The notes beneath the pieces were generated by a model, which saw only the letters and a program-made list of their open reading frames with translations, had not been told where the DNA came from and ran no database searches. From assembly GCA_964566925.1 (NCBI GenBank), contig CAZMIZ010000003.1, forward strand, positions 30,792-94,791: a stretch of 64,000 bases of DNA. Reading direction: 5' to 3'. Position 1 is the first letter of the stretch. Each line of letters begins with the position of its first letter. This stretch comes from an uncultured Gammaproteobacteria bacterium. GTDB taxonomy: Bacteria; Patescibacteriota; Microgenomatia; PFEM01; DATLAM01. A program made the position numbers and the translations under genes. Below are positions 2,682 to 37,524 of this stretch, piece after piece.

Positions 2682-3368
2682 ATGAGAGAACCAGATCGGG
2701 GAGAAAAAGGGCTACCAGTATTGTCTCCTCTTGAAGCAGGAACAGTCTTAGCTATTCGTGTAGAAGGAAGGCTGTTTCCATCTCCTGATAGAGAAAGTGA
2801 TCTTTTTAGGGTAGTCCCTCTGGAACTTACCAAAGGAACCTTTTCACTTTGCCAAAGAGCCCTTTATAGAAATGCCAAAGACACTCTTGGCCGATATCCC
2901 AGCTTGATGGAAAATCCCTTGTTAGTTGACATTTCTCAAGCTGGATGGGATAGATTCGCAGACAGTCAACTTAGGGCGTCGATTTGGTGGAATAACCAGG
3001 CTCGAGAGGTTCTTTTTGGAAAACCAGTCTCAACTCCAGCTGATTGGCTAGAATTCGACAAAGAAAAAACAAATCTGGAAATTCCTATCAGGGGCGCTAA
3101 AGCCCTGGCCTTGGGGATCTATACTTCCATTTGTGAATTAGACGCTGTGGCTCCACAATCTAGTTCAAAGGATGAAGCTGAATCAAGAAGGGTGATAAAA
3201 ATCTTTTTGGGAGGTTTAGTGGATGTTTTGAATATCCTCGATGAACATAAAGTTTCTATTGATTCAGAGAAAATTGAAGTTTTGCAAGAAGTCCAGAGAG
3301 AAGTTCAAATTCATCCCTACGCCGCTTTCCCTCTTCAACCTAGGCTTCAGGCTCGTTTGGAGGAATAG
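2682..3368 (+). CDS. Hypothetical protein, 228 aa
   Basis: ORF only; no motif recognised. Confidence 0.5.
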   Translation: MREPDRGEKGLPVLSPLEAGTVLAIRVEGRLFPSPDRESDLFRVVPLELTKGTFSLCQRALYRNAKDTLGRYPSLMENPLLVDISQAGWDRFADSQLRASIWWNNQAREVLFGKPVSTPADWLEFDKEKTNLEIPIRGAKALALGIYTSICELDAVAPQSSSKDEAESRRVIKIFLGGLVDVLNILDEHKVSIDSEKIEVLQEVQREVQIHPYAAFPLQPRLQARLEE

Positions 3369-7829: not shown

Positions 7830-10747
7830 GAGGAACTAATCTTTAATTTTTTTCCAGAAATGATCTTTTTGGCTAAAGTTTTTCTTTTAAGATAATCTAT
7901 CAGCGATCCTGATTGAGGAATTTTGGGAAGGGAAACCACAATTGACTGATCAAGCCGAAAGCCCGCCTCTTTCCTTAGAGACTGAATTTGACGCACCAAT
8001 TCTCTTGCTTCCCCTTCAGCTTGAAGCTCTGGTGTCATCTTGGTATCCAGCTTAACCTCTGTCTCTTCACCTTTAAGCAATTCGACTTCTTTAACATTCA
8101 ACTCTTCTTTAACTAATTGAGCGAGGGCTTTATCCAGCTTTCCCTTTTCTATTTTACATCTTGCCTTTCTTAATGGCTGACGAACCTTAATGCCCTCTTT
8201 TTTCCTAGCGGCATGACCTAGCTCACAGATGTCCCGGACGAGGGCCATTTGGTTAAGCAGTTTCTGGTCTAAAACCTTCCTGGTTTTCACTTCAGGCCAA
8301 TCACTGAGATGAACTGATTCTTCACCGGTTAAATTTTGGTAGATTTCTTCCGCCAAAAAGGGAGTAAAAGGGGCTAAAGCTTGAGAAAGAACCACTAAAA
8401 CCGTATAAAGGGTCGAGTAGGTCAAATCTTTATCTTCTTTATTTTTGGCGGTCGGGCCCACTCGGTCTCGAGAGCGGCGAACATACCAAGTAGAAAGATC
8501 TTGAACAAAATCTTCGATCGCCAGAGTCGCAGTTTGAGGATCATAGTCATCCAGGCTTCCGGTCACCACAATCATCGTTTCGTCGAGGCGGGTGAGAATC
8601 CAAAGGTCAAGGTTGGTAGGCTTTTTCTTAAACTCAATTCGCGGTTTCCAGTGGTCAAGATTGGCATAGGTAACGAAAAAGTTATAAATATTCCATAAAA
8701 GAAGGTGAAATCTTCTTCTGACTTCATCACCAGCCCGAAAACCAAAATTAAGATTTAGTCTCGGATTTTGACTAAGATACATCCAGCGCATAACATCAAC
8801 GCCCATCTTCTCAGCCGCTTCATTAAACTCAATAGCGTTACCCTTGCTTTTGTGCATTTCTTCTCCTTTTTCATCACGGACTGAAGCATAACCTAAAAGA
8901 ATTTTAAACGGCTCTTTATCCTCTAAGACCGTACTCATGGCAATCAGGGAATAAAACCAGTTTTTAAACTGACCCGGGAAACACTCAGTCACAAAATCAG
9001 CCGGAAACCACTCATGCCAATATTTTTTATCACCTGAATAACTTACTTTGTTTGTCTTAGGTTCCACCAAGGTAGAGAAAGAGACAATGCCAGCATCAAG
9101 CCAAGGATTGCCAACATCGGGAATACGTGAAACCTCCTCACCACACTGAGAACACTTGATCTTAATCTGGTCAACCCAAGGCCGATGAGGACTATGGCCT
9201 TTGAATTTACTCCATCCTTTGGCGGCTCGTTTCTTCAATTCTTCTTTTGAACCAATCAATTCAAAATGGCCACATTTCTGACATTCCCAAATAGGCAAAG
9301 CCAATCCCCAATAGCGCTTTTTAGAAATCAACCAATCGTCCATGTTCCTTAACCAATCCAATTCCCTTTTTAAACCAAATCCCGGAATCCAATGAATCTT
9401 TTTCGCTATAGTTATCATCCGCTGACGATAGTTCTTGGCTGCTTTTTTATTCGTATCATCCATGGCAAGATACCATTCGTCAACCACCCTCCAAAGAAGT
9501 TCAGTTTTACAGCGCCAGCAAATAGGGTAACGATGAGTAAAATTCTCGACTAACCAATTTCTATCTTCTTTCTTTAAAAATTCAATCACCAGTTGAGAAA
9601 CCTTGTTTGCGGGTCGGCCAGAGAAATCCCCAAAACCTTCAAGATAAACACCTGCTTGATCTAGAGGTCCAACTACCGGCAGGTCAAATTCTTTGCCGAG
9701 ATCAAAATCTTCCTCGCCGCCACCCGGCGCGATGTGGACTAAACCGGTACCCTCTTCTTCAAGTACTTCTTTCCAGGGAATAATCTGATGTTCATATTGT
9801 GGCTTTTGGGCAAAGGCCTTTTTGACGGCTGGCAAATGGTCAAACAAACCTTGATATTTTCTTCCCACCAGCTCTTTCCCTTTAATTTTCTTCACCTTCT
9901 TAGCGTTTGGTGCGGTTCTCTTCATATAACTCTCAGTGGCGTAAAAAATTCCCATCTTAGTGGTAAACTTAACGTAATCAAGCTCCGGATTGACGGCGAT
10001 GGCCACATTAGCCGGAAGAGTCCAGGGAGTAGTCGTCCAAACTAAAAGAAACTCATCCTTAGCTCCTTTTAAAGGGTACTCAACGGCGATCGCCTGATGG
10101 GTTAGTTCCTTATAATCCTCAGTCAAAATCTCATGCTGAGAAATGGCGGTCCCGCAGCGAGGACACCAGGGGACTGAATCCCTCCCTTTATAAAGATTTC
10201 CATCTTGCCAGCACTTCTTCAAAAACGACCAAATCATATAGTTATTTTCATCACTCATCGTATAGTAAGAGTGGCCCCAGTCCATAAAATAAGCCAACCT
10301 TTTTGATTGCTCAGTCATTATTCTGGCAAATCTAAGAGTCCGTTCCTTACATTTATTAACAAATTTGGCGATCCCATATTTTTCAATATCCTTTTTGTCT
10401 TTAAAACCAAGCTCTTTCTCAACCTCGACCTCGACCCATAAACCTTGGTTGTCAAAACCATTTTGAAAACGCTGCTGGTAGCCTTGCATGTTTTTGTATC
10501 TTTGGAAAAGATCCTTATAGGTTCGGCCCCACGCGTGATGAACGCCCATCGGGTTATTAGCAGTAATCGGGCCGTCAAGGAACCGGAAGCGCTTTTTAGC
10601 CTTGCCTGCCTCGTCGGCAGACAGGCCACTAGGCGGGTCGTTTCGGTGAAGATATTTTTTGACAATTCCTTTCTTATCCCACCAATCCAAAAGCTTCTTC
10701 TCGAGCTCAACAAAGTCAGGTTTAGTTGTCGTAGGTTTAAAAGCCAT
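7826..10747 (-). CDS. ileS: Isoleucyl-tRNA synthetase, long form (973 aa) with Zn-finger Cys pairs
   Basis: WTTTPWTLPAN (IleS hallmark), HIGH-like GVHHAWG, KMSKS-like MHKSKGN, and CPRCG/CQKCG/CSQCG zinc knuckles. Confidence 0.8.
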   Translation of the reverse strand: MAFKPTTTKPDFVELEKKLLDWWDKKGIVKKYLHRNDPPSGLSADEAGKAKKRFRFLDGPITANNPMGVHHAWGRTYKDLFQRYKNMQGYQQRFQNGFDNQGLWVEVEVEKELGFKDKKDIEKYGIAKFVNKCKERTLRFARIMTEQSKRLAYFMDWGHSYYTMSDENNYMIWSFLKKCWQDGNLYKGRDSVPWCPRCGTAISQHEILTEDYKELTHQAIAVEYPLKGAKDEFLLVWTTTPWTLPANVAIAVNPELDYVKFTTKMGIFYATESYMKRTAPNAKKVKKIKGKELVGRKYQGLFDHLPAVKKAFAQKPQYEHQIIPWKEVLEEEGTGLVHIAPGGGEEDFDLGKEFDLPVVGPLDQAGVYLEGFGDFSGRPANKVSQLVIEFLKKEDRNWLVENFTHRYPICWRCKTELLWRVVDEWYLAMDDTNKKAAKNYRQRMITIAKKIHWIPGFGLKRELDWLRNMDDWLISKKRYWGLALPIWECQKCGHFELIGSKEELKKRAAKGWSKFKGHSPHRPWVDQIKIKCSQCGEEVSRIPDVGNPWLDAGIVSFSTLVEPKTNKVSYSGDKKYWHEWFPADFVTECFPGQFKNWFYSLIAMSTVLEDKEPFKILLGYASVRDEKGEEMHKSKGNAIEFNEAAEKMGVDVMRWMYLSQNPRLNLNFGFRAGDEVRRRFHLLLWNIYNFFVTYANLDHWKPRIEFKKKPTNLDLWILTRLDETMIVVTGSLDDYDPQTATLAIEDFVQDLSTWYVRRSRDRVGPTAKNKEDKDLTYSTLYTVLVVLSQALAPFTPFLAEEIYQNLTGEESVHLSDWPEVKTRKVLDQKLLNQMALVRDICELGHAARKKEGIKVRQPLRKARCKIEKGKLDKALAQLVKEELNVKEVELLKGEETEVKLDTKMTPELQAEGEARELVRQIQSLRKEAGFRLDQSIVVSLPKIPQSGSLIDYLKRKTLAKKIISGKKLKISSS

Positions 10748-24094: not shown

Positions 24095-24562
24095 ATGGTA
24101 AAATTAATAAAAGAAATGGCCAGATCAGAAAGTTATTTTTATTTTGGCAGATTTTTAGAAGATTCGGAACGGAATAAGGAAATAATCCTGGCAGGCGAAT
24201 TCCTTAAACCCCTCCGGGTGGGAATCGAACACGGATATATTCAAACCGTGGACGATTTCTACGAAGAGCTGGAATCAGATCAGCAACTGGTTGGAACAGA
24301 GATTAATCTCGCTATCTCATTCGCTATTGTCGCTGTAGAAATGCAAGATGCTCTTGAAGAGAATCAGGCTGGCCAACCGCCTCTTGATTTTTGGGAACGC
24401 TACCATCTTTTTTCTCTCATCGGCAAAGCAATTGCCGACGATGAAAGAGTCTTTCTGCAATCAAACTTCCAGCCAGGAAAAGAAGAGGATGAAAAATTTA
24501 TAGAAATAGTGAGAAAAGTAATGGGAAAGGTTGAGGCGGAGATAAGCCAAATCGGCGACTAA
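24095..24562 (+). CDS. Hypothetical acidic protein, 155 aa
   Basis: ORF only. Confidence 0.45.
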   Translation: MVKLIKEMARSESYFYFGRFLEDSERNKEIILAGEFLKPLRVGIEHGYIQTVDDFYEELESDQQLVGTEINLAISFAIVAVEMQDALEENQAGQPPLDFWERYHLFSLIGKAIADDERVFLQSNFQPGKEEDEKFIEIVRKVMGKVEAEISQIGD

Positions 24563-24650
24563 GCTTCCTTTCATCTTTTTTCCAATTCCTTTATATTTCA
24601 CTTCAACAATTCTATCAAATCCAGAGGGAAATTTTCCGAGCCATTTTTAG

Positions 24651-25445
24651 TCAGATGGAGGAGATGGGTGCTGATAATAATCTCTCGAGAACTCTAGGAT
24701 TTTCTTTACTCGAAGAATAAAGTCCGAGATTAAAATCCTGGGCTACCCTGACGTCTAAATTTAAAATTTCTAGAGGACGCGACCTCGACAAAAGTTCTTC
24801 TCCTGAAATCTCCGGTTTCTCCTTTTTAATCTCGGCCAACGCTTCTCTTTGACTTAGCATGTTTAATTGGAGTAAATAAGGTTTGAGCTCATCATGATGA
24901 CGATCTAACGAAATAGAGCCCTGGCCAGTCTCTAAGGATTTAAGAACAAGCATCAGGTTTTGTTCAGAAACTACGGCCATCAAAAAGTCTTCCAAATGGC
25001 TAAAATAATCCGAGTAACCAAGAAAATAAATTAAGTCTGATCTACTTAACAAAGCCGGTCTATCATAAGCATGAGGATGGACTGTTCCTAAAACGACAAA
25101 ATCATATTTTCTGATTGTCCGCTTGCTGGCCTTTTCCAATTTTATCCACGTTCTTCCAAAATCAGGCCTACCCCCTCGTTGACCAGCAACAATACCAAAA
25201 CCCGGTTTATAAAAGAGGGGTTTGTAAGTTTCCATGCGCCTATTATCGAGTGAATATTGAAGTTCTTGTTGGAAAAAGCTTTCCAGTGTTTCATTTAGAG
25301 TAATCCGGAGAGGCAAAGAATCAAATGGGGGAAAAACTCCTTCCCGTAAACTTTCAAAAATGTCGTGAAGTTCGACCGGAGGGGCACCCGCAAATTCATA
25401 CCCTCTAGGAATTTTTATTTCTTGTGAAGGAGATTCATTCGTCAT
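24651..25445 (-). CDS. Hypothetical protein, 264 aa; contains HPHAYDRPALLSRSD, loosely JAB/MPN-like (HxH..S..D)
   Basis: ORF; the motif is off by one residue from the canonical JAMM spacing. Confidence 0.45.
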   Translation of the reverse strand: MTNESPSQEIKIPRGYEFAGAPPVELHDIFESLREGVFPPFDSLPLRITLNETLESFFQQELQYSLDNRRMETYKPLFYKPGFGIVAGQRGGRPDFGRTWIKLEKASKRTIRKYDFVVLGTVHPHAYDRPALLSRSDLIYFLGYSDYFSHLEDFLMAVVSEQNLMLVLKSLETGQGSISLDRHHDELKPYLLQLNMLSQREALAEIKKEKPEISGEELLSRSRPLEILNLDVRVAQDFNLGLYSSSKENPRVLERLLSAPISSI

Positions 25446-25508
25446 AAGATAAATGACCTTTTGGGCAGTCAGTAATTATACCACGAGGCATAGTTTTGGA
25501 GTAAAATT

Positions 25509-25769
25509 TTAGGGAAGTTCTCCTCTAGACATTCTTTTGCTGGCGTCTCCGGAGGTTCCAGTCCCTGGGGTACCTGATCCAGGCTGTGTTTCCTCAAGCT
25601 CGGTTTCAAGTCCCTCCTCTTTTTCCAATAAGTCCATCAGTTCTTCTCCTCCCGCAGTGCTCAGTTGACTTCTAACTGAGTCTAGCTCTTCAAGAAGTTT
25701 GGCCCTTTTTTGTTCGGGCGTCAATTTTCTCTTGCTTTTTAGATCTTCCTGCTTTTCTGAAAATGCCAT
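25509..25769 (-). CDS. Small acidic coiled-coil-like protein, 86 aa
   Basis: ORF only. Confidence 0.35.
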   Translation of the reverse strand: MAFSEKQEDLKSKRKLTPEQKRAKLLEELDSVRSQLSTAGGEELMDLLEKEEGLETELEETQPGSGTPGTGTSGDASKRMSRGELP

Positions 25770-25810
25770 TTCCCCTCCACGATAGGATTTTAAGTTTAAC
25801 GGACTGACGG

Positions 25811-26008
25811 CTACCTGGTTAATTTTCTATATTGGAGACACCTTCTCGCAAACTCAGCCCCATAGATTAAGGTCGGTCCTAAGGCTACTGGCCAATATCG
25901 GGAAGCCATCGCGCCGCCAAGTAAAAAAAGCCCAGAGATGGCCGTTTTCTCGTAGGCTCTTTTTTGCTCAAGATCGTTGCTGCTTGTTGGTGCCTGCTCT
26001 TTTCCCAT
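25811..26008 (-). CDS. Small protein, 65 aa, with a hydrophobic segment
   Basis: ORF only. Confidence 0.3.
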   Translation of the reverse strand: MGKEQAPTSSNDLEQKRAYEKTAISGLFLLGGAMASRYWPVALGPTLIYGAEFARRCLQYRKLTR

Positions 26009-26009
26009 T

Positions 26010-26027
26010 TGTGAAAATTATATCACA
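26010..26027. promoter_or_regulatory. Palindrome TGTGA-N8-TCACA in the divergent promoter region (CRP/FNR-like half-sites with non-canonical spacing)
   Basis: Read directly; a TTGACT-16-TATATT promoter for the 26111 gene lies 50 nt downstream. Confidence 0.35.
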
Positions 26028-26110
26028 AGGCAGGGTTTTAGGGGCCTAAATTAGCTGACAAACTAGCTAAATCTTGACTTTAACCTCGGAAATGATATAT
26101 TGGACCCAAG

Positions 26111-26449
26111 ATGATTCGGGTAGAAAACCCAATTTCCTGGTTCCGCCCCAAAAGACATTACCAAAAATTCGAAGAATTTGCTCAAGGATTAGACAATCAA
26201 GCGCTGGTTGAGAAAAGAGAAAAATACGACCACACTCTTCGGAATACAGCCATCATCTCGGGCCTAGGAGTAGCTGCTGGCGTTGGCGTGCTTGGGGTTT
26301 TAGCCCCTATCATTCCTGAAATTTGGTTGACAAGTGGCCTAATGGCTGGTGGTGTAAGTGCCATTGGACCTACAAGACATACCATTAGAGTGGGAGAAAA
26401 GGCCATCCTCAACGAAGAAATAGAAATAAGAAATTTACCTCAGAAATAA
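26111..26449 (+). CDS. Small membrane protein, 112 aa
   Basis: Gly/Ala-rich TM segments. Confidence 0.45.
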   Translation: MIRVENPISWFRPKRHYQKFEEFAQGLDNQALVEKREKYDHTLRNTAIISGLGVAAGVGVLGVLAPIIPEIWLTSGLMAGGVSAIGPTRHTIRVGEKAILNEEIEIRNLPQK

Positions 26450-26457
26450 ACATCTTT

Positions 26458-27045
26458 ATGGCAGAAACAAAAGGTTTAGCTCCAGCACCCCCAAAAGACC
26501 TCCAGCCTCTCCCAGAAATACCAGATCTTCAACAAAAATTTGAAGACCTTTTACAACAGTTTGTTTCTGAAGGGGGCAATCAAGAGGTTAGACAAGAAAT
26601 CGAAACATTTCAAGATGTAAATGAAGAGGGGGTTGAGCAAGCAATGTTCGTGGCGCCAGGTTGGTCAAAAGAAAGTCCTCCTAATGTTGGTGTCGCTTTT
26701 GAGGTTAGCCGAGGTCGCGCCAGCTACACCGGTAAATTTTATGAAAGCAATCCTCCCGCTTACGGAAGAGTAACAGCCAGTGAATTTCATTTCGATTCAG
26801 AAGGGGAAGGTAAAGGCATTTCAGGACCGCCAGGAATATTCGACCCACTAGGAGAGACATTAACTGATCGGTATGATGCTCCAATCATTCAAGCAGTAGC
26901 CAACGTTTTTAAAAAGAGAATCTTACATTCTTTAGAGGCTCGGGATCAAAAGAGAATAAGGGAACTAGTTCAAAAGGGTTATCGGCGCCGAAAGGGCTAT
27001 CCTCAAGTCTTCGATAAATTCTACGAACCCCAACCTGGCAGGTGA
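26458..27045 (+). CDS. Hypothetical protein, 195 aa
   Basis: ORF 9 nt after the previous gene. Confidence 0.45.
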   Translation: MAETKGLAPAPPKDLQPLPEIPDLQQKFEDLLQQFVSEGGNQEVRQEIETFQDVNEEGVEQAMFVAPGWSKESPPNVGVAFEVSRGRASYTGKFYESNPPAYGRVTASEFHFDSEGEGKGISGPPGIFDPLGETLTDRYDAPIIQAVANVFKKRILHSLEARDQKRIRELVQKGYRRRKGYPQVFDKFYEPQPGR

Positions 27046-27071: not shown

Positions 27072-27602
27072 TTAACCACCTGGACAGATATCTTCGGCCC
27101 AAAGGCCGCGGTCATTTTCTCTTGCCTCCTGTTCGGCTTCTCTAAATAACTCTTGATATTTGACATCCGGCGGATAGGTGGCGGTTTGAGCGTATCCCTG
27201 CCTTACCAGATAATCGTTGACGAATAAGTTATCCACATAGACATAGCGCAAAAGCCGATGATACTGATCCGTTTCGGAAACATCCTTTTCTAGCCTAACC
27301 TCTTTGCCTTCAACCAATTCTTTGTTCTTTTCGGTGGCCTCATCAGCCAAACAGCCGCTTTCCGGCGTATCAATGCCAATATAACGCACTCTTTCCCCAC
27401 CCTCGACTTCAATCGTATCCCCATCAATCACCCGAGTAACTGTGAATGTCTGTTCTTCAACCGGAGACGTCTCGATTGTCGGAGTTGGCTCTGAAGTAGT
27501 TTCTTTTGGACTAAAACCCTGGCCAAGAGCAAACCCAATAAGGAGCAACGCCCCACCAAGGATTACAAAAAGGATTTTCTTAGGAATCTTCACCTTAGTC
27601 AT
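27072..27602 (-). CDS. Membrane-anchored thermonuclease (staphylococcal nuclease/SNase family)
   Basis: N-terminal TM segment, then VTRVIDGDTIEV...RVRYIGIDTPE SNase core. Confidence 0.75.
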   Translation of the reverse strand: MTKVKIPKKILFVILGGALLLIGFALGQGFSPKETTSEPTPTIETSPVEEQTFTVTRVIDGDTIEVEGGERVRYIGIDTPESGCLADEATEKNKELVEGKEVRLEKDVSETDQYHRLLRYVYVDNLFVNDYLVRQGYAQTATYPPDVKYQELFREAEQEARENDRGLWAEDICPGG

Positions 27603-27885
27603 TTTTCTCCGCTCGACGGAGCTTAAGTTTTAGTTTTTTGAAAAAAAGAACGAAAGAGAAAATGACATACAAATAAACAACAATAACCCAATCGTCGTAT
27701 AAACCTCGAAGTGTAGGGGGCGTAACTAAAATGAAAAAGAATAATGCAAGGGGGAGATTCAAAAATGCGAATAAATTGATAATTCGCACTCTATTCATTG
27801 GGTATATAATAACATTTTTCGCGGAATTCTTACTTTTGCCATTTTTAGCCCCCGAATTTACACTGAGTTTGCCAAAGTGCCACAA
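27595..27885 (-). CDS. Small membrane protein, 96 aa, overlapping the thermonuclease start by 8 nt
   Basis: ORF with a TM segment. Confidence 0.4.
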   Translation of the reverse strand: MWHFGKLSVNSGAKNGKSKNSAKNVIIYPMNRVRIINLFAFLNLPLALFFFILVTPPTLRGLYDDWVIVVYLYVIFSFVLFFKKLKLKLRRAEKND

Positions 27886-27894
27886 TTTTAATCT

Positions 27895-28815
27895 CTACCT
27901 GTCTGGAGCGACTTCGCAGGATTCCTTAACAATTTCTAAAATATAATTAATCTTTTCCTCTTTTAAGACATCAATCCACCAAAGAGGAGTTTTCCCCCAT
28001 TCATAAGAAGCTGGGACTCTCTTAAAAAGCTTCTCCTTGTCTGATTTAAGCTTTTTCTTCCTGACATAGATTCTAAGTTTGTTTTGGTATACGTGAATAG
28101 AGGCAAAATTGTACCAATTAAATTTGTAACCGATGTAAAACTTAACTGGCTTTTCCTTGATATTCTCATCAATAGAGAAAATCTTTTCTCTTAACTTCTC
28201 AAACAACTCCCTAATTTTAGGCGAGGCCTTTTTCCTGTGATCTTCGATTGTATATTCTCTCACCTCACGACTAACGGTGGCGACGGCCTTACCTTTGGTT
28301 ACTGTTTTGATAGATTCTTTAGCTTCAGGGGATTTAAGTTGATTGAAAAGAATAAGATTATCTTCAAAAATTTCCACTTCCCACAACTCTATTGGCAAAT
28401 CCTTAAAACCAATTGCCCCTCGTTGATGAGGGGTAAAAGAAGGGGCGACGAATAAAACCCTGGATTGAGACCAGTCGACATCGCCGCGCTTTAGATTCTT
28501 TTTCTTCTTTTCATTGTATTCAAGAATGAAATCGGACTTATTATTGAGCATCAAGGAGAGATAGTTCAAACCTTGATCAACAACACTAAAACTTTGATCT
28601 CTCTTATATTCGATGACAACAAAGGAGCGCGTTTCTGAATCAAAAGCTAGGGTATCGATGTAGAAGTTATGGATTCCGAATTCACTGCTGATAAATTCTA
28701 AACCAAAAATTATTTCAAGGTTTTCCTCGGTTAGTTTCTGTAAATCCTTTTCAAAATCAAATTTCTTTTCTTTAACCTGGCTGAGTTTCTTATTCTTTAT
28801 CTGAAAAATCGGCAT
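27895..28815 (-). CDS. Putative PD-(D/E)xK-fold nuclease-like protein, 306 aa
   Basis: N-terminal FYIDTLAFD...(16 aa)...VVIEYK matches hh-D...ExK; Lys-rich C-terminal half. Motif-level only. Confidence 0.45.
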   Translation of the reverse strand: MPIFQIKNKKLSQVKEKKFDFEKDLQKLTEENLEIIFGLEFISSEFGIHNFYIDTLAFDSETRSFVVIEYKRDQSFSVVDQGLNYLSLMLNNKSDFILEYNEKKKKNLKRGDVDWSQSRVLFVAPSFTPHQRGAIGFKDLPIELWEVEIFEDNLILFNQLKSPEAKESIKTVTKGKAVATVSREVREYTIEDHRKKASPKIRELFEKLREKIFSIDENIKEKPVKFYIGYKFNWYNFASIHVYQNKLRIYVRKKKLKSDKEKLFKRVPASYEWGKTPLWWIDVLKEEKINYILEIVKESCEVAPDR

Positions 28816-28847
28816 TTGGGGATATTATAGCATGAGCAGGGTGGAAG

Positions 28848-29624
28848 TTAAGAGATCTTTTCTTGAATCATTGGCCCAAGCTGTTCAACCTCATACAAAA
28901 TCTCAGCGTTATTATCAGTAGTAATTTTATATCTCGCGTTTTGAATCTCAACGATTGTGGAAAAGCTTAACTTCCAAGCCTCCTCTCCCTCCGTTTTTAT
29001 GAAATTTATGACAGGAATGTTTGGAAGAGCATTGTTTTCTATGGCAAGGCCTATTGCCTTTGACACCCTTCGCTTTCGACGATCTCTCCATTCCTGTAGC
29101 CTAACCTGTTCTTCGTAAATAATTGTTGCAGTAAGAACAGTAAGGATTATTACAAGGATGTAGATTATTGCCTGTAAATATGTATAAAAGAGTGGAGGGT
29201 TCATTGACAAAGACATCCCAAGCCAAATAAAAATTAAGCCCAAAAATAGTATAGCCACTATAAAAATGAGAACCAGCCTATGATGATCTATTCTAAAAGG
29301 CGGCCCAACTCGTTTAACTTTCTTAATCTCTTCCGGTGTATGTCTTTGAGGGTTTATACGATCAAGATAGTCTCTGTATTTTTTATTCTGCCACCAAAAT
29401 GGCTGAATCGAAATAAATGGTCTCTGTCTATACCAGAAAATTACAAGAAATGAGACTAACAGCGTCAAAACTGACGCCGCTAGAAATACTTCTCTATTTA
29501 AGAATATTCCAGCCGTAGTACCTGGAAACAACAGATAAAAAAACTGAATCAGCGGGAGCGCATAAGAGAGAAAGCCGGCTAAGCTTTTAGAAATTTCATT
29601 TACACTTTCTTTTGTTTTGTCCAT
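28848..29624 (-). CDS. Membrane protein (about 4 TM) with a cytoplasmic C-terminal domain, 258 aa
   Basis: Hydrophobic segments; no motif recognised. Confidence 0.5.
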   Translation of the reverse strand: MDKTKESVNEISKSLAGFLSYALPLIQFFYLLFPGTTAGIFLNREVFLAASVLTLLVSFLVIFWYRQRPFISIQPFWWQNKKYRDYLDRINPQRHTPEEIKKVKRVGPPFRIDHHRLVLIFIVAILFLGLIFIWLGMSLSMNPPLFYTYLQAIIYILVIILTVLTATIIYEEQVRLQEWRDRRKRRVSKAIGLAIENNALPNIPVINFIKTEGEEAWKLSFSTIVEIQNARYKITTDNNAEILYEVEQLGPMIQEKIS

Positions 29625-29635
29625 TAATTTATTAA

Positions 29636-29667
29636 ATCAAAAAACAAAGCCTGCTTTCTGAGCAGGC
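29636..29667 (-). terminator. Rho-independent terminator after the RM gene (stem GCCTGCT/AGCAGGC, then TTTGTTTTTTGATTT)
   Basis: Hairpin 29649-29667 plus T-run read on the minus strand. Confidence 0.6.
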
Positions 29668-29773
29668 AACTTGATTGTACACTTTAAGTTATTAAAGGTC
29701 AACTTTTCGTAATTCCAATTTCTCGATTTAAATCAAATTTTTCTCAACTTCCGGGTGAAGTTTGGCGAGTTGG

Positions 29774-32287
29774 CTATGTCGTTATATCGCCGAATTCACT
29801 TCTTAGCTTTTTAATAGCTTGTTGTGCCCCCCATTTCTTTCCAAATGCTTGGCGTATTCTTTCCGAAATATATTTTCTTTTTTTACGACTTTTAGAGACG
29901 GGTAGATAAATTTCTTTCCATCTATTCCCAATATTCGGAAGAGTTGTTTCTATAAAGATTTTGTTGCGCAGCTGTTTTTGGGCTAGTTCATGAGATAGTA
30001 AATAAATTAAGTAGTAAGGGTTTATATCCCACTGGTTCTTATCATTGATTACCCTGATTACAAGCAATTCCCTGGTTAATAAAATTTCGTTTTCGTCGGG
30101 AGAAACCATCGCTACTGTGCCAATTCTGTAACTTCCTCTTCTAACGAAAATAATATCTTTTTCTTTAAGGCTAACTCCGCTGCCCTTTATCTTTAAATAC
30201 ATCTTTCGGGGAATCAAAGACGTCGGGTTTTTGTAAATCTCCCAATTAACAATATCCTTAACCCTTATATACGGAACTTCCCCTCTGCCTTTATAATGTC
30301 CAGGAGGAGAACCATGTCCATCGGAATATTCGACTACTTTATGCCTAATTAATTTCGATAAGCCTACCATCTCAAAACTTCCTTCCTTGGCAATTTTTTT
30401 CAGCTCTTTTTCTCTTTGCCCCCAATAATAGCGAGGAATGTAGATGTCCGTTTTAATTGCGGAGGTGTTGATAGCAAAAAGATTTTTATTACCTTTTTTA
30501 TCTGGGTTGTTTATTTCTTCCCTTATTATTTCTGTGTCGTCCCATAATTCTTCTGTAAAGCCTTTTGTCTTTTGGTCAAATCTATATATTGGCTTGCCGT
30601 TGTGGTCATGTCCAACCTCCTCGGCTACTGCCATGATAATTTTCTCTTCTTGGGGTTTGTTTTTTTGTAACACTAAAAGCATAGTTTTAGCATTACAGTG
30701 GGGTCTAAATGTATTGTGTGCAAGATCAATAATTGCTTTTATATTGTGCTTTTTTAGAAATTGTAAGATATAGCGGGTCTTTGGCGCATGGAAATATGTC
30801 TCAGGTAAAACTATGCCCAATATACCCCCATCTTTAAGAAGTTGTAAGCATCTCTCAATAAAGAGAATTTGAGGTTCCTCGCTATCTTTAAGTTGGGCTG
30901 TTTTCGCATAGCCTGTCCCTGATTTTTTCCACCGGTAAGCAAGGTCATATTGTTTAAGTTTTTCTTCTCCTTCTACTTTTATCTTTGAACCAAAGGGAGG
31001 GTTAGTCAATACAATATCAAACGAGCCAAGCTGTATTTTGTCTCTAGCTTGCATATCCCAATTTTTGGGACTATCAAGGCTGTCTTCACAAAAAATACCG
31101 CCTTTTCCATCCCCAACTATCGCCATATAAGCCTTAGTGACTTTACTCAAGAAATAATCTTTATCGACGCCCTTAAAATTAGAATTGGCCACTGTTAGCT
31201 TTTCTAGCTCGATATTAGTTTTCTTCCATTCATATCTTTTCCCTTGATTCTCAATCTTATTCCATACATACCTTAAACTGTCAATCAAAAATCCTCCTGA
31301 CCCACAAGCAGGATCAATGATAAGATGTTTTGGCGAGGGATCAACTAATCTTACAAGGGTTTGAATCACGTTCCGCGGAGTAAAAAATTGTCCCTGAGAT
31401 CCCTTTAACGCTGGGCCTATAAAAACTTCAAAGGCCTCAGCTATAACATCCCTCTCTGCGTCCGTTAAACAGAAGTTTTGCAGTTCACCCACAATGTAAG
31501 TTAAGGATCGGGCATCCAAATTTAGTGAGTCGCCTACATCTATAATCTCGGGGTATCTTTTCTTAACTTTCTTAAACAGGTGAAGAATTCTTTCTTTTAC
31601 TTCTCCAGTGCTCTCTTTTATTCCAGCCCTGAATTGTACTATATTGTCTTGTTTAGTAAATTTTTCATCATAAATCTTGCAAAAAATAACGTTAATCAAC
31701 TGTTGAGCAAGAACCTCGTCTCTAGTAGCGCCCACAGCCATTCCTGCTAAATAATTCCTCATAGCATTAAACGTAGATTTTAAGTTACGAGGAGGCTTTA
31801 AGTCTTTCCTTTTAAACAAGCCTATATCTGCTATTCTTTGGCCTGCTCGAGGGATAATTGGAATCTCCTCGAAGTAAACTTTTCCCTCTTTCTCTGTTTT
31901 TTTGAGAAAGAGCCTTTCCTTTCCGTTAAACCAAACACCTAGTTGAGCTTCGGACAGTCTCAGGTAGTCTTTCAACTGTGATTCTCCGTCTTTTCTAGTC
32001 TTTTTTTTACATTCAACTATTATCCATAAATTATCATCGATCTTTCTCTCTGACTTAAAAACAGCAATATCTACCGGGTATTCTTTCTTTTTATCAGAAG
32101 GTCTTGCTTTTACTCTCCATTGGGAATGGGTCTGTATTTGTGTTTTCTTATAGCCATAATCTTCGACAAGGGATTTAGCGAATACCTGAACAGCCTCGAT
32201 TTCTTCTGGAGTTGCCTTTACCCACTTATTAGTAATATAGTCTTGGATGTGCCCTTCCTTAGTTTCAACCCTTTTCTTCTTTGCCAT
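29774..32287 (-). CDS. Single-chain Type IIG (MmeI-like) restriction-modification enzyme: N-terminal PD-(D/E)xK endonuclease, gamma-class N6-adenine MTase, and a C-terminal target-recognition region
   Basis: VDIAVF...IIVECKK nuclease motif, MTase motif I IDPACGSGGFL, motif IV NPPFG, about 380 aa after motif IV. Region markedly AT-rich. Confidence 0.65.
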   Translation of the reverse strand: MAKKKRVETKEGHIQDYITNKWVKATPEEIEAVQVFAKSLVEDYGYKKTQIQTHSQWRVKARPSDKKKEYPVDIAVFKSERKIDDNLWIIVECKKKTRKDGESQLKDYLRLSEAQLGVWFNGKERLFLKKTEKEGKVYFEEIPIIPRAGQRIADIGLFKRKDLKPPRNLKSTFNAMRNYLAGMAVGATRDEVLAQQLINVIFCKIYDEKFTKQDNIVQFRAGIKESTGEVKERILHLFKKVKKRYPEIIDVGDSLNLDARSLTYIVGELQNFCLTDAERDVIAEAFEVFIGPALKGSQGQFFTPRNVIQTLVRLVDPSPKHLIIDPACGSGGFLIDSLRYVWNKIENQGKRYEWKKTNIELEKLTVANSNFKGVDKDYFLSKVTKAYMAIVGDGKGGIFCEDSLDSPKNWDMQARDKIQLGSFDIVLTNPPFGSKIKVEGEEKLKQYDLAYRWKKSGTGYAKTAQLKDSEEPQILFIERCLQLLKDGGILGIVLPETYFHAPKTRYILQFLKKHNIKAIIDLAHNTFRPHCNAKTMLLVLQKNKPQEEKIIMAVAEEVGHDHNGKPIYRFDQKTKGFTEELWDDTEIIREEINNPDKKGNKNLFAINTSAIKTDIYIPRYYWGQREKELKKIAKEGSFEMVGLSKLIRHKVVEYSDGHGSPPGHYKGRGEVPYIRVKDIVNWEIYKNPTSLIPRKMYLKIKGSGVSLKEKDIIFVRRGSYRIGTVAMVSPDENEILLTRELLVIRVINDKNQWDINPYYLIYLLSHELAQKQLRNKIFIETTLPNIGNRWKEIYLPVSKSRKKRKYISERIRQAFGKKWGAQQAIKKLRSEFGDITT

Positions 32288-32356
32288 ATTCGGGTTTTGT
32301 TCGTATATCTAGACTACCTTCTTTAAGAATCTTTGTCAAGAGCTAGTCTCGTCCTA

Positions 32357-32389
32357 ATTCTACCTTATAAATTTGCTTTCAGCAACTTA
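32357..32389 (-). promoter_or_regulatory. Promoter/operator module copy 1 (TTGCTG-17-TAGAAT, with inverted repeat TTGCT-TTC-AGCAA over the -35) upstream of the RM gene
   Basis: 29-nt repeat 32361-32389 identical at 28 of 29 positions to 32736-32764. Confidence 0.5.
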
Positions 32390-32437
32390 TCACGTCAGAC
32401 GTGACAAGCAGGCCAAGCCACGCTTGTGTTAGGGTAT

Positions 32438-32472
32438 GATGTATGATTTAAGATTTAAGATTGAAGATTGAT
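32438..32472. repeat. Five tandem degenerate heptamers: GATGTAT GATTTAA GATTTAA GATTGAA GATTGAT
   Basis: Read directly; lies between the small regulator ORF and the RM promoter. Confidence 0.5.
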
Positions 32473-32500
32473 GAGGTTCTTGATTTCCTTAATCTCGTGC

Positions 32501-32713
32501 CTATTGAGGCCATTCAGAATAGGGTAACTGAGCGTCCAAGTAAGTGTCTTCGGGAGCCGCATCGGGAAATCTAATTCCTGCCGGTCCTTCTAATTTCGGT
32601 CTGAAAATCTTTCCTCCCTTAGTAACTAACTCCACAGCTGCCAAATTTAAAAACTGGCTTGCAGGAACAATCATACCAACAACTCTTCCTCTCTCTGGCC
32701 CTTTTTCTGGCAT
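32501..32713 (-). CDS. Small AbrB/MazE-like (swapped-hairpin) DNA-binding protein, about 70 aa; candidate controller of the RM system
   Basis: RGRVVGMIVPASQFLNLAAVELVTKGGKIFRP parallels MazE/AbrB (GNSPAVRIPATLMQALNL..DEV....GKLIIEP). Own copy of the promoter/operator module and a GAGGTG RBS. Confidence 0.4.
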   Translation of the reverse strand: MPEKGPERGRVVGMIVPASQFLNLAAVELVTKGGKIFRPKLEGPAGIRFPDAAPEDTYLDAQLPYSEWPQ

Positions 32714-32731
32714 CTCTTTCACCTCGCTCTT

Positions 32732-32764
32732 ATTTTACCCTATAAATTTGCTTTCAGCAACTTA
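32732..32764 (-). promoter_or_regulatory. Promoter/operator module copy 2 (TTGCTG-17-TAAAAT with the same TTGCT-TTC-AGCAA palindrome) upstream of the small regulator ORF
   Basis: See copy 1. Confidence 0.5.
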
Positions 32765-32807
32765 AAGGGCAGGCCATACCATGATTAAGGTTTAGTGTCT
32801 AGAAGGG

Positions 32808-34619: not shown

Positions 34620-35755
34620 ACCACCTTTCTCGGTAAATAAGGGTTAATTTGGGTGACCACTTCGTAATTGATGGTCCCGATTTTGGTAGCCAGTTCTTCA
34701 GCCGGGATTTCATTTCTCCCCTGCTTACCCAAAAGAACCACTTCATCCTCAATTTTAACCTGAGGAATATCGGTGACGTCCACCAGTACCATATTCATGC
34801 AAACCCGACCGACTACCGGCGCGAATTGGCCTTTAATTAAAACCCGACCGGCATTAGACAGCTTCCGATCATAACCATCCCAGTAGCCGACTGGTAAAAC
34901 GGCAATTTTAGTTTGCCGATTGGTTCTAAAGGTTCGGCCATAACTAATAGTCTCGCCTTTTTTAACTATTTTTATTTGAGCCACTTTGGTTTTCCAGGTT
35001 AAAACCGGCTGAAGATTGATTTTAATCTTGTTTTCTTGGGCAGAAATCTTGGTTTCCCGCGAAGGCCAAAGCCCATAAAGACCAATCCCTAAACGAATTA
35101 GATCAAAAATTGTTTGATCAAAGAGGGTGGCGGCCGCGGTACAGGCCGTATGCTTAACCGGGATTTTAATCTTTGCTTTCTCGAGGAGCTTAACAGCTTG
35201 CTTGAAATTCTCCAGCTGTTGTAAGGGATAAGTGTGGTCCAAAGTGTCTTCGATGTTCGCATAATGAGTGTAAATTCCTTCCAGGAAAATATTTTTCTGT
35301 TTCAAGCAAGTCTGGGCAAAAGAAACAAGTTGGTTGACCTCAATCCCCTGCCGATGGGTGCCGGTCTCCACCTTTAAATGAACCTTGGCAGTCTTGTTTA
35401 ATTTTCCCGCTTCTTGATTGGCTTTTTTAACGGTCTCTTGGTTGTAAACCACAAAACTTAAATCGGCCTTAATCGCCTCTTTGATTTTGGCTAAAGGCAG
35501 ATAACCTAAAACCAGAATCGGTTGATTGATTTTGAGCTGTCTTAAGAAGAGGCCGCCCTCCAAGCTATTCACCCCAAACCAGTCAGCCTGATTTTTAACC
35601 ACCTGGGCTACCTCCCCCACCCCATGACCATAGGCATTGGCCTTGACCACCGCCATTACTTTCGCTTTTGGTCCCACCCTTTTCTTAAATTGGTTAAGGT
35701 TATAGATTAAAGCCTTTTTAGAAACTTCCACTCTGGTTAAAGATGAACTAATCAT
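34616..35755 (-). CDS. alr: Alanine racemase
   Basis: PLP-site AVVKANAYGHG. Confidence 0.85.
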   Translation of the reverse strand: MISSSLTRVEVSKKALIYNLNQFKKRVGPKAKVMAVVKANAYGHGVGEVAQVVKNQADWFGVNSLEGGLFLRQLKINQPILVLGYLPLAKIKEAIKADLSFVVYNQETVKKANQEAGKLNKTAKVHLKVETGTHRQGIEVNQLVSFAQTCLKQKNIFLEGIYTHYANIEDTLDHTYPLQQLENFKQAVKLLEKAKIKIPVKHTACTAAATLFDQTIFDLIRLGIGLYGLWPSRETKISAQENKIKINLQPVLTWKTKVAQIKIVKKGETISYGRTFRTNRQTKIAVLPVGYWDGYDRKLSNAGRVLIKGQFAPVVGRVCMNMVLVDVTDIPQVKIEDEVVLLGKQGRNEIPAEELATKIGTINYEVVTQINPYLPRKVV

Positions 35756-37524
35756 TTGACGGTCACACTTTTGGCAATGTTTCTTGGTTTATCAACATTA
35801 TGATTAAGTTCGACGGCTAGATAATAGGCCAGCAGCTGAAGGGGGATAATGTTGCTGATGGCACTCGTTTCGCCTAGATCAGGCACCTTAAGATGGAAGT
35901 CAAAGCTTTGATGATTATCTGACGAAATTCCGATCACTTCTGCCCCTCGAGCCTTAACTTCACTAACCGCATTTAAGATATCTTTTTTAACCTGGTCATT
36001 AGAGAGAACAAAAATAACCGGTACTCCCTTTTCTATCAGGGTAATGGCATAGTGTTTCAAATCGCCGGCCGGAAGGGCATGAGCATGAAGATAGGAACCT
36101 TCAATAATTTTTACCATTCCCTCTTTAATGATTTGTAAATTCTGGGCTTTGCTTAACAAAAAGATATCCTTTTTCTTAGCTAATTTTTTAGCCAGTTTCT
36201 TTATCAGTCGGTGATTTTTCTTATTCTTTAGATATTTCTTAATAAGAGAAGCGGTTCTGGCTAGGTTTTTAGTCCCCTCTTCTAGTTTATTCTCAACCGC
36301 CTTTGAGACTAAATAACCCCAAGCTAAATGAGAAACAAAAATCTTGGTAGACATCACACAAATCTCCGGCCCGGCTTGGGACATAAACTGATAATCGGAA
36401 ATTCTAGTTATCATTGAGCCCGGCATATTCACCAAGGAGGCAATTTTAACTCCTTTTTCTTTGGCTATTTCCAGGACCTCCAAAACATCAGCCGTTTCTC
36501 CGCTTTGAGATAGGGCAATGATCAAATCGCCTTTTTGGAACAGCTGGCCATACTCTTCGGCCTCAGCCCCAATCAGGCTAACGCTAAAAACCCCACCAAA
36601 CTCCCTTAGATAAAAAGCCATCTGAGCCGCTGAGGCCCCAGACGTTCCCGAGCCAATGGTATAGACATTTTTGGCTTTCTTGATCGTCTTGGCAAATTTT
36701 AAATAGTCGCCTTTGTTTTGCTTGAAGACTCTTTCAATAGCAAAAGGAGCCTCATTGATCTCTTTAATCATAAAATGCTTGTATCCTTCTTTATCAACCC
36801 GGCTGTCCCGAATGTTTATTTTTTCTAAACGGTAGGCAATCTTTTTCCCAGTTTTAGCGTCAAGCAATTTTATTTTTTGAGGCTGACAGATAGCTATCTG
36901 ACCATTATCTAAAAAAATAGTTTTTTCTACGTAAGGAGCAAAAGAAAGAGTGTCGGAGGAAATATAAATCTCGCTAAGGCCTAGTTTAACCCCAATTACC
37001 AAGGGAGAGCCGTTTCTAGCAGAAATAATCTTCCCATCTCTGGTTAAAATGATGATGGTATTTCTACCCTCAAGTTCTAGGAAGGCTCGCCTGACAGCCT
37101 CTTCCAGGCAATTCTTATCTTTAAATTTCTCTTCAATCAGCCGGACAATGACTTCAGTATCTGTCTCTGTTTTAAAGCGAACCTTTTTCCTTTTAAGTCT
37201 TTTTTTAAGCTCTTGATAATTTTCCACAATGCCGTTATGAGCCAGAATAAAACTTTTATCTGAAGAAAAGTGGGGATGAGCGTTGGTATCGTTTACCGCT
37301 CCATGGGTGGCCCAACGAGTATGGCCGATCGCCATTGGACTTGAAGAGAGCTTAACTCGAGCCTCACTAATTTTACCAGCATGTTTATTAACTAAAATGG
37401 CTGAGCCATTTTTGATGCCTATTCCCCAACTGTCATAACCTCGATATTCAAGTCTCTTTAAGCCAGAAAGGACTGCCTGGGTGGCGTCCTCTTTGCTGCC
37501 AATGTAGCCAAAAATGCCACACAT
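35752..37524 (-). CDS. glmS: Glutamine--fructose-6-phosphate aminotransferase
   Basis: MCGIFGYIG Ntn start and two SIS domains. Confidence 0.9.
   Translation of the reverse strand: MCGIFGYIGSKEDATQAVLSGLKRLEYRGYDSWGIGIKNGSAILVNKHAGKISEARVKLSSSPMAIGHTRWATHGAVNDTNAHPHFSSDKSFILAHNGIVENYQELKKRLKRKKVRFKTETDTEVIVRLIEEKFKDKNCLEEAVRRAFLELEGRNTIIILTRDGKIISARNGSPLVIGVKLGLSEIYISSDTLSFAPYVEKTIFLDNGQIAICQPQKIKLLDAKTGKKIAYRLEKINIRDSRVDKEGYKHFMIKEINEAPFAIERVFKQNKGDYLKFAKTIKKAKNVYTIGSGTSGASAAQMAFYLREFGGVFSVSLIGAEAEEYGQLFQKGDLIIALSQSGETADVLEVLEIAKEKGVKIASLVNMPGSMITRISDYQFMSQAGPEICVMSTKIFVSHLAWGYLVSKAVENKLEEGTKNLARTASLIKKYLKNKKNHRLIKKLAKKLAKKKDIFLLSKAQNLQIIKEGMVKIIEGSYLHAHALPAGDLKHYAITLIEKGVPVIFVLSNDQVKKDILNAVSEVKARGAEVIGISSDNHQSFDFHLKVPDLGETSAISNIIPLQLLAYYLAVELNHNVDKPRNIAKSVTVK

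Follow-up and report, generated by a model that had tools for sequence, protein, structure and literature searches.

Type IIG and type IIB restriction-modification (RM) enzymes are single-chain proteins in which a nuclease and a gamma-class N6-adenine methylase share one polypeptide, as in the RM subunit of BsaXI, a type IIB enzyme whose recognition goes through a separate S subunit. A second point of comparison is provided by the PDC families of PADLOC, 145 candidates that its authors nominated as embedded in BREX, DISARM or type I RM systems. Here we describe a tract of low GC content at about 27.6-32.4 kb of a 64,000-nucleotide stretch of contig CAZMIZ010000003.1 (this whole stretch is referred to as the window), in which a gene related to each of these stands on the minus strand. 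A first-pass annotation had read a cluster of four minus-strand genes here, and the list of open reading frames (ORFs) contained all four: a gene of type IIG RM architecture (837 aa; 29774..32287), a gene for a protein with four transmembrane segments (4-TM; 258 aa; 28848..29624), a gene now assigned to the family PDC-S18 (306 aa; 27895..28815), and a thermonuclease gene (176 aa; 27072..27602). The annotation had proposed that the second and third form a new two-gene abortive-infection module. We consider it likely instead that the tract is a small accessory islet in which three independent, self-contained genes, those for the RM enzyme, the 4-TM protein and the PDC-S18 protein, lie side by side. 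Its contents are known kinds of defence-type genes, with no new two-gene system among them.

Both proteins of the supposed pair had been said to match nothing that could be named, and a hidden Markov model (HMM) check against Pfam and PADLOC gave a different outcome for each. The 306-aa protein was assigned to PDC-S18, as it gave a full-length match to the PADLOC model PDLC04945 (353.9 bits, E=1.8e-106; residues 1-299 aligned with model positions 1-300 of 302). It also matched the model PDLC04946 (E=5.3e-56) and, at residues 190-272, the Pfam domain DUF5655 (E=2.6e-8). The 4-TM protein was true to its description: no family in Pfam, NCBIfam or PADLOC took it in, and no specific fold relative was found. 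PDC-S18 is a very large family, comprising 4,686 clusters at E <= 1e-3, with a patchy distribution over Patescibacteria, Bacteroidota, Gamma- and Alphaproteobacteria, Firmicutes, Thermotogae, Methanobacterium and Nitrososphaeraceae. Members were also present on mobile DNA, in 33 plasmid records, 3 phage records and 16 IMG/VR contigs. The PDC-S18 label itself carries no information on mechanism.

The PD-(D/E)xK motif that had been noticed in the 306-aa protein was kept throughout its relatives. In an alignment of 75 members, residues E22, D54, E69, K71, S77, D80, Q81, G82 and Y85 were invariant, which gives the layout E22, D54, E69-x-K71 and Q81-x3-Y85; because these residues do not vary among the 75 members, the alignment indicates that the D...ExK motif is real and under selection. 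The AlphaFold2 model (pLDDT 89.8, pTM 0.84) has two domains. Its N-terminal domain matched NucS/EndoMS (2vld and 5gke; Foldseek probability 1.0, E=1.4e-4) and, more weakly, the nuclease domains of Shedu, SfsA and LmuA. The C-terminal domain is a small alpha/beta domain of the YjbR/YdhG/DUF1801 kind (Foldseek probability 0.99 to YjbR, 2fki). With both the catalytic residues and a modelled restriction-endonuclease-like core in place, the protein is predicted to adopt the PD-(D/E)xK fold, with a NucS-like nuclease domain followed by DUF5655, and it would be expected to act as a nuclease. The likeness to NucS/EndoMS lies in the catalytic fold and in the conserved E, D, ExK and QxxxY-type residues. 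Unlike NucS, the 306-aa protein has its nuclease domain at the N-terminus with DUF5655 after it, and the N-terminal DNA-binding domain of NucS is absent. Membership of NucS itself was rejected, with 17.5 bits against a threshold of 24 for Pfam NucS_C and 15.5 against 216 for the NCBIfam NucS model.

The 4-TM and PDC-S18 families were not found together in unrelated genomes, in whichever direction the comparison was made. No relative of the 4-TM protein was present at any of 49 PDC-S18 loci, and a tblastn search of eight distinct 4-TM loci returned no PDC-S18 relative. Nor was a membrane protein of any kind common in this position: of 36 genes upstream of PDC-S18 on the same strand, only 3 encode proteins with at least two transmembrane segments, and those three proteins (161, 685 and 232 aa) showed no similarity to the 4-TM protein of the window. 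Across 59 PDC-S18 loci the neighbouring genes varied and no obligatory partner was detected, as for a single-gene unit, which is also how PADLOC treats the family. The proposed abortive-infection module was therefore not sustained, given the lack of co-occurrence in both sets of loci and the conserved promoter that the 306-aa gene appears to have of its own. Parts of the earlier argument did stand, in that the motif is kept and the 306-aa family has defence neighbours, but the pair does not recur outside this genome. One of the three upstream membrane proteins, a fragment (9437-9922) encoded before the PDC-S18 homologue at locus L005, is unrelated to the 4-TM protein of the window, and motifs like those of CPBP/Abi-family intramembrane proteases (EILFRY...AIHW...HALVN) can be made out in it by eye.

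The 306-aa gene seems to bring its promoter with it. A candidate extended -10 element, TGCTATAAT, lies at 28824..28832 on the minus strand, 8 nt upstream of the ATG, and no Shine-Dalgarno sequence precedes the gene; because the element is so close to the start codon and a Shine-Dalgarno is lacking, we infer that the mRNA is leaderless or nearly so. We compared the window with three loci that carry close homologues, L005 (82% identity), L004 (83%) and L003 (77%). The genes upstream were unrelated, and the upstream sequences could not be aligned except for the last ~20 nt, which read TG(C/T)TATAAT-N8-ATG. Downstream, similarity stopped at the stop codon. These boundaries suggest that the unit which moves in this clade is minimal, a cassette with a putative promoter and one ORF.

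The association of PDC-S18 with RM was counted over 59 distinct loci from genomes and IMG/VR, and the counts are lower bounds, as detection hinged on the seed sequences. At least one type I RM gene was found within 5 kb at 22 of the 59 loci (37%) and directly adjacent, within 300 bp, at 15 (25%), while 11 genes (19%) were embedded, with RM genes on both sides. The families most often met among the neighbours were Methylase_S, N6_Mtase, HsdM_N, ResIII and HSDR_N (Pfam). Several Bacteroidota loci had the order hsdM, PDC-S18 gene, hsdS, hsdR, where stop and start codons overlap, and the Acinetobacter plasmid pRBH2-4 had a DUF5655 gene between hsdS and hsdR. The family is thus embedded in or adjoins type I RM systems, the same ground on which the PDC families had been nominated. 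Unlike the embedded members, the copy in the window stands beside a type IIG-type enzyme, adjacent to it and outside any type I, BREX or DISARM operon. Since the family is strongly RM-associated, the description of the 306-aa gene as defence-type is reasonable, as it is for the RM gene. Other PDC-S18 genes were found in different company, near sugar genes on a Staphylococcus plasmid and near glmS in SAR86 and SAR116 loci. In three of the latter, marine loci from single-cell or metagenome-assembled genomes (L033, L045 and L049), glmS is followed immediately by the homologue, and glmU-like genes stand one gene further away. glmS is a classic insertion hotspot; the glmS gene of the window (35752-37524) is about 7 kb from the PDC-S18 gene and about 3.5 kb from the low-GC tract.

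The 837-aa protein, which the first-pass annotation had called a type IIG RM enzyme, was found to contain the parts of one. Its N-terminus is a PD-(D/E)xK nuclease (Pfam HSDR_N_2, residues 34-143, E=3e-14) with the motif PVD73...E92-x-K94, and its middle a gamma-class N6-adenine methylase (N6_Mtase, residues 278-563, E=1.2e-34) with the motifs DPACGSGGF and NPPF; PADLOC matched the protein to MTase_II (E=1e-94). At the C-terminus, about residues 638-773, there is a single target-recognition domain of the HsdS type. The last 248 aa had no Pfam or PDB sequence match, and only a profile comparison with HsdS gave an alignment, to the second recognition domain (hhalign probability 93%, E=3.4e-7). 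On Aerococcus and Ligilactobacillus plasmids, full-length relatives with 38-39% identity occur as solitary genes whose only annotation is "N-6 DNA methylase", and the motifs PVD73...E92-x-K94, DPAxGxxGF and NPPFG are invariant in these proteins. Neither the ORF list nor Pfam gave a separate S or R gene adjoining the RM gene. Because a nuclease with an intact motif, a methylase and a recognition domain share one chain, the sequence argues for a single-chain type IIG architecture with predicted RM activity, and the earlier assignment is upheld by the Pfam domains, the HsdS-type C-terminus and the invariant motifs.

The closest structure was RM.BsaXI (PDB 8w0p, E=1.6e-26), which the protein resembles in joining nuclease and gamma-class N6-adenine methylase in one polypeptide. 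Unlike BsaXI, it has a single HsdS-type recognition domain of its own. It also resembles MAD2 of the MADS system (NCBIfam NF047738), with residues 10-581 aligning to positions 2-616 of the 654 in the model (E=3.6e-120). Unlike MAD2, it has about 250 extra C-terminal residues holding the recognition domain, and it reaches 402 bits where the curated cut-off is 720; membership of MAD2/MADS was rejected on this score. No MADS component was found among the 4-TM, 306-aa and thermonuclease proteins covered by the PADLOC scan, with orf70, a small ORF described below, and the neighbours on the DUF3795 side lying outside it.

A clean terminator downstream of the RM gene had been predicted, and it is credible: an intrinsic hairpin, GCCTGCT-CAGAA-AGCAGGC followed by TTTGTTTTTT, lies at 29637..29667 on the minus strand; for the hairpin at 29667-29649 the free energy is -14.1 kcal/mol (z-score -2.74). 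From this terminator the annotation had set off the 4-TM and 306-aa genes as a separate transcription unit, a conclusion that does not follow. Only about 12 nt lie between the T-tract and the ATG of the 4-TM gene, and no promoter fits there. The sole candidate promoter for the 4-TM gene, TTGACC-17-TACAAT at 29702-29674 on the minus strand, lies upstream of the hairpin, and a transcript from it would begin at the hairpin. Without room for a promoter after the hairpin, the 4-TM and 306-aa genes are not delimited as a two-gene unit by the terminator. Expression of the 4-TM gene in this genome would probably be weak, from transcripts that run on through the hairpin.

The RM gene had likewise been given its own promoter, and for this the evidence is divided: a plausible duplicated element lies upstream of the gene, but the consensus promoter scan did not call it. 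The element is 42 nt long with the consensus TTGCTG-N17-TA(A/G)AAT (repeat family D1), and its 20-nt core occurs exactly twice in the 64 kb, against 0.03 occurrences expected. The start codon of the RM gene follows about 70 nt downstream of copy B (32348..32389, minus strand), in which TTGCTG (32385-32380) and TAGAAT (32362-32357) are separated by a 17-nt spacer. Copy A (32723..32764, minus strand) is 88% identical, lies 375 nt upstream of copy B and precedes orf70. Immediately 5' of the element, copy B has a perfect palindrome, TCACGTCTGACGTGA (32404-32390), created by a 14-nt insertion that is absent from copy A. As it stands just 5' of the -35-like box, the palindrome could be an operator.

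Four hydrophobic segments were confirmed in the 258-aa protein, for which AlphaFold2 gave a model with a pLDDT of 90.9. The N-terminal half has two transmembrane helices with an LPxxQFF motif followed by a basic linker, and the C-terminal half has two further transmembrane helices (conserved Q151, invariant Y155), a long helix and a four-stranded beta domain. An exhaustive search of 1.84 billion representative proteins returned 70 matches at E <= 1e-3 and 47 at E <= 1e-10, nearly all of 220-300 aa and most aligning over almost the entire query; a word-indexed search found one relative only, and five proteins with the family profile. The family, a rare one of about 70 clusters, is the only truly uncharacterised element of the cluster. 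A possible relation to Aga2, the Argonaute-associated membrane effector, was rejected: 1 of 54 members matched (E=1.1e-4), over the transmembrane helices, which we judged an artefact of hydrophobic composition, and other members matched unrelated transmembrane models.

Besides the window, eight distinct loci supplied genomic context for the 4-TM family. At L001 the gene is accompanied by glycosyltransferase and polysaccharide genes, with a type ISP enzyme 6.4 kb away. L053 contains a KAP NTPase, a rolling-circle Rep protein, a serine recombinase and, downstream, a conserved partner of 142 aa; the same small partner (143 aa) is present at L055. L056 has a 320-aa protein without a family assignment and an Eco57I-like methylase; L057 and L060 have proteins without a family assignment. 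L058 carries a tyrosine integrase, a helix-turn-helix regulator, GP3_package and AlbA_2, and L061 a Methyltransf_23 protein and a nucleoside deoxyribosyltransferase. Some members (L058/L059 and L053) sit in integrative or mobile elements. At most loci the 4-TM gene is divergent from its upstream neighbour and so starts its own unit; elsewhere than in the window, then, the gene usually stands alone or opens a small transcription unit of its own. In a distant branch of the family the partner is a beta-rich protein (8843-9271 at L053 and 2803-3234 at L055, 56% identical) whose start codon touches or overlaps the preceding gene, and the 4-TM gene and its partner may constitute a two-gene unit of their own, one that the window lacks. 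This partner was considered as a nuclease and rejected, having only weak FlgT_C-like similarity, no PADLOC match and, within the window, no relative. At L056, the locus of the closest 4-TM relative, the 320-aa protein encoded upstream resembled the beginning of the 306-aa protein on inspection, but homology was rejected: hhalign gave a probability of 0.5% and Pfam and PADLOC gave nothing.

The composition of the region sets these genes apart. Mean GC in the window, taken in 1-kb segments, is 42.8% (sd 2.5), and all segments below 38.5% fall inside ~27500-32500, with a single exception at 59751. The RM gene has 37.4% GC, the 4-TM gene 37.2% and the 306-aa gene 36.3%. The AT-rich cluster of the first-pass annotation is therefore real as a low-GC tract, but the thermonuclease gene, at 46.5%, is outside it. 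None of the three low-GC genes has a Shine-Dalgarno sequence before its ATG (32288-32305, 29625-29640 and 28816-28830), whereas one is present before the thermonuclease gene (GGAG, 27603-27615) and before orf70 (AGGTGA, 32714-32725), genes of normal GC. This difference fits a foreign origin of the islet. tRNA and Rfam scans gave no match in or near the region, and a search for repeats on either side of the islet gave the 42-nt promoter-like duplication and no other. A search for an empty site through relatives of the thermonuclease found no close relative of the genome, so that the limits of the islet are not fixable by comparison.

An independent Logan assembly of the same genome (SRR14817123; loci L052 and L146) has two breaks in this region, at window positions ~28829-28832 and ~32761. 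At the first, one contig stops 19 nt past the stop codon of the 4-TM gene and the next starts at the T of TGCTATAAT; the second coincides with the first base of copy A of the promoter-like element. Between them, orf70 and the RM and 4-TM genes are left as one contig of 3.9 kb. Breaks at both junctions may reflect strain-level variation there.

Several points weigh against our reading of the islet as independent genes of defence type. Only 32 nt and no terminator separate the 4-TM gene from the 306-aa gene, which has the same orientation, and co-transcription, or a link between the two that is specific to this lineage, would be compatible with the comparison of loci. The TGnTATAAT element is a putative promoter, known from its conservation. 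All 145 PDC families stand as candidates only according to the PADLOC authors, a literature search found no paper that mentions PDC-S18, and at 37 of the 59 PDC-S18 loci no RM gene was detected within 5 kb, as would be compatible with a role outside defence. (The same kind of search gave one incidental mention of DUF5655.) The narrow gap, the missing terminator and the similar low GC are what would be seen if the two genes did form an abortive-infection or defence module, with the membrane protein as effector or sensor to the nuclease. We regard this as very improbable, as the families co-occur nowhere else, an upstream membrane protein does not recur, the conserved promoter and the gene boundaries fit a single-gene cassette, PADLOC models PDC-S18 as a single-gene candidate, and the Logan assembly breaks exactly at the junction between the two genes. 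The 4-TM gene could alternatively be tied to the RM gene upstream, for instance as a membrane factor made when transcription continues past the RM terminator. The lack of promoter space after the hairpin is in keeping with such a tie, as is the presence of an RM-type methylase within about 6.5 kb in 3 of the 9 contexts (the window, L056 and L001), and other contexts resemble mobile elements (KAP NTPase, Rep and recombinase; integrase and AlbA_2). The remaining 6 of 9 have no RM gene nearby, however, the methylases are of different kinds and the numbers small, and at most loci the gene is divergent from its upstream neighbour as its own unit, which makes the tie quite unlikely. It is similarly doubtful that the family represents a new stand-alone membrane factor for defence or exclusion in uncultured bacteria with small genomes, or, in a weaker version, that it is combined with PDC-S18 in this lineage only; in either case the recurrence of the family in variable or mobile regions, by RM methylases, a KAP NTPase, or integrase and AlbA_2 genes, would be the relevant observation.

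For the 306-aa gene the alternatives concern what its product does. Many PDC-S18 genes lie between hsd genes, as does prrC, which in the prr locus of E. coli is found between hsdS and hsdR and encodes PrrC, an ABC-ATPase anticodon nuclease. The 306-aa protein might by analogy guard restriction in the manner of PrrC, as a latent nuclease freed when a phage inhibits the RM system. The 11 embedded genes, often with overlapping stop and start codons, and the gene order on the Acinetobacter plasmid point this way. Against it, no type I RM gene lies within 5 kb at the 37 loci mentioned above, the gene of the window has its own putative promoter and adjoins a type IIG enzyme outside any type I operon, and PrrC has no fold relationship to the 306-aa protein, from which it differs in chemistry as well. 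A guard role is possible for the embedded members, but since most members, including that of the window, are not embedded, it cannot be general, and for the 306-aa protein we find it unlikely. A different possibility is that the gene has no part in defence, being either a selfish mobile cassette or a repair or housekeeping nuclease, and that its nearness to RM genes reflects insertion into tolerant regions. Its minimal boundaries, the patchy taxonomy with plasmids and a few viral contigs, the many loci with metabolic or unrelated neighbours such as glmS and the sugar genes, and the closest fold being the repair enzyme NucS all agree with this. Embedding with overlapping codons in type I RM systems of several lineages, however, points to co-expression over random insertion; the protein fails the NucS_C threshold and lacks the N-terminal domain of NucS; and the flanks of close relatives are unrelated, unlike in site-specific homing. 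We consider a non-defence role rather unlikely. Independent defence-type genes in an accessory islet therefore remain our preferred explanation.

The fourth gene of the original cluster belongs outside it. The 176-aa protein has one N-terminal transmembrane segment and a Pfam SNase domain (E=1.6e-19), just as the description of a membrane-anchored thermonuclease had it, and it probably acts outside the cell as a nuclease tethered to the membrane. Metagenomes contained more than 316 relatives, and of the loci surveyed 80 were kept, 30 of them at least 8 kb long. None of the 80 contained a relative of the PDC-S18 protein, the 4-TM protein, the small ORF described next or any of the flanking genes of the window, and RM was represented near the thermonuclease by one weak match. 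Because of its normal GC and the lack of linkage in these 80 loci, we take the thermonuclease gene to be an unrelated neighbour rather than a part of the cluster.

Two features had not been listed in the first-pass annotation. One is a possible ORF of 67 aa with two transmembrane segments (27595..27798, minus strand, 33.8% GC), whose TGA stop overlaps the ATG of the thermonuclease gene (ATGA), an arrangement that suggests translational coupling. It had no relatives in the 80 thermonuclease loci and is absent from public gene calls. The other is orf70 (70 aa; 32501..32713, minus strand, 45.5% GC), which lies between the two copies of the 42-nt element behind its Shine-Dalgarno-like AGGTGA. It is called as a gene in public assemblies, it had no family match and no cluster relatives, and it may be what remains of the gene that supplied the duplicated promoter. 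Just beyond the thermonuclease gene, at 24095-27045, six small ORFs of 65-264 aa lie on both strands. Five of the six were scanned and had no significant Pfam match, the 155-aa ORF being left out of the scan, and none of the six had a relative near other thermonuclease genes. This stretch may be a further variable region.

The RM enzyme would mark its own recognition sites by methylation and cleave incoming DNA that lacks this methylation. The PDC-S18 product would be an autonomous DNA endonuclease with a presumed anti-phage function, in which the DUF5655 domain may bind or sense a DNA feature or ligand and so license the cleavage of invading DNA. Such a nuclease would add to restriction-modification or back it up, and we propose that PDC-S18 genes are often found beside or inside type I RM operons because the nuclease would complement restriction.

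The analysis stops a false lead, in that the apparent new abortive-infection pair is probably a chance juxtaposition of independent genes. It places the 4-TM family on record as a small, well-folded family that is as yet without annotation. It also adds detail to the very large candidate family PDC-S18, namely invariant catalytic residues, a minimal cassette and proximity to type I RM at more than a third of the loci surveyed, and it makes PDC-S18 a well-defined single-gene target for phage challenge.

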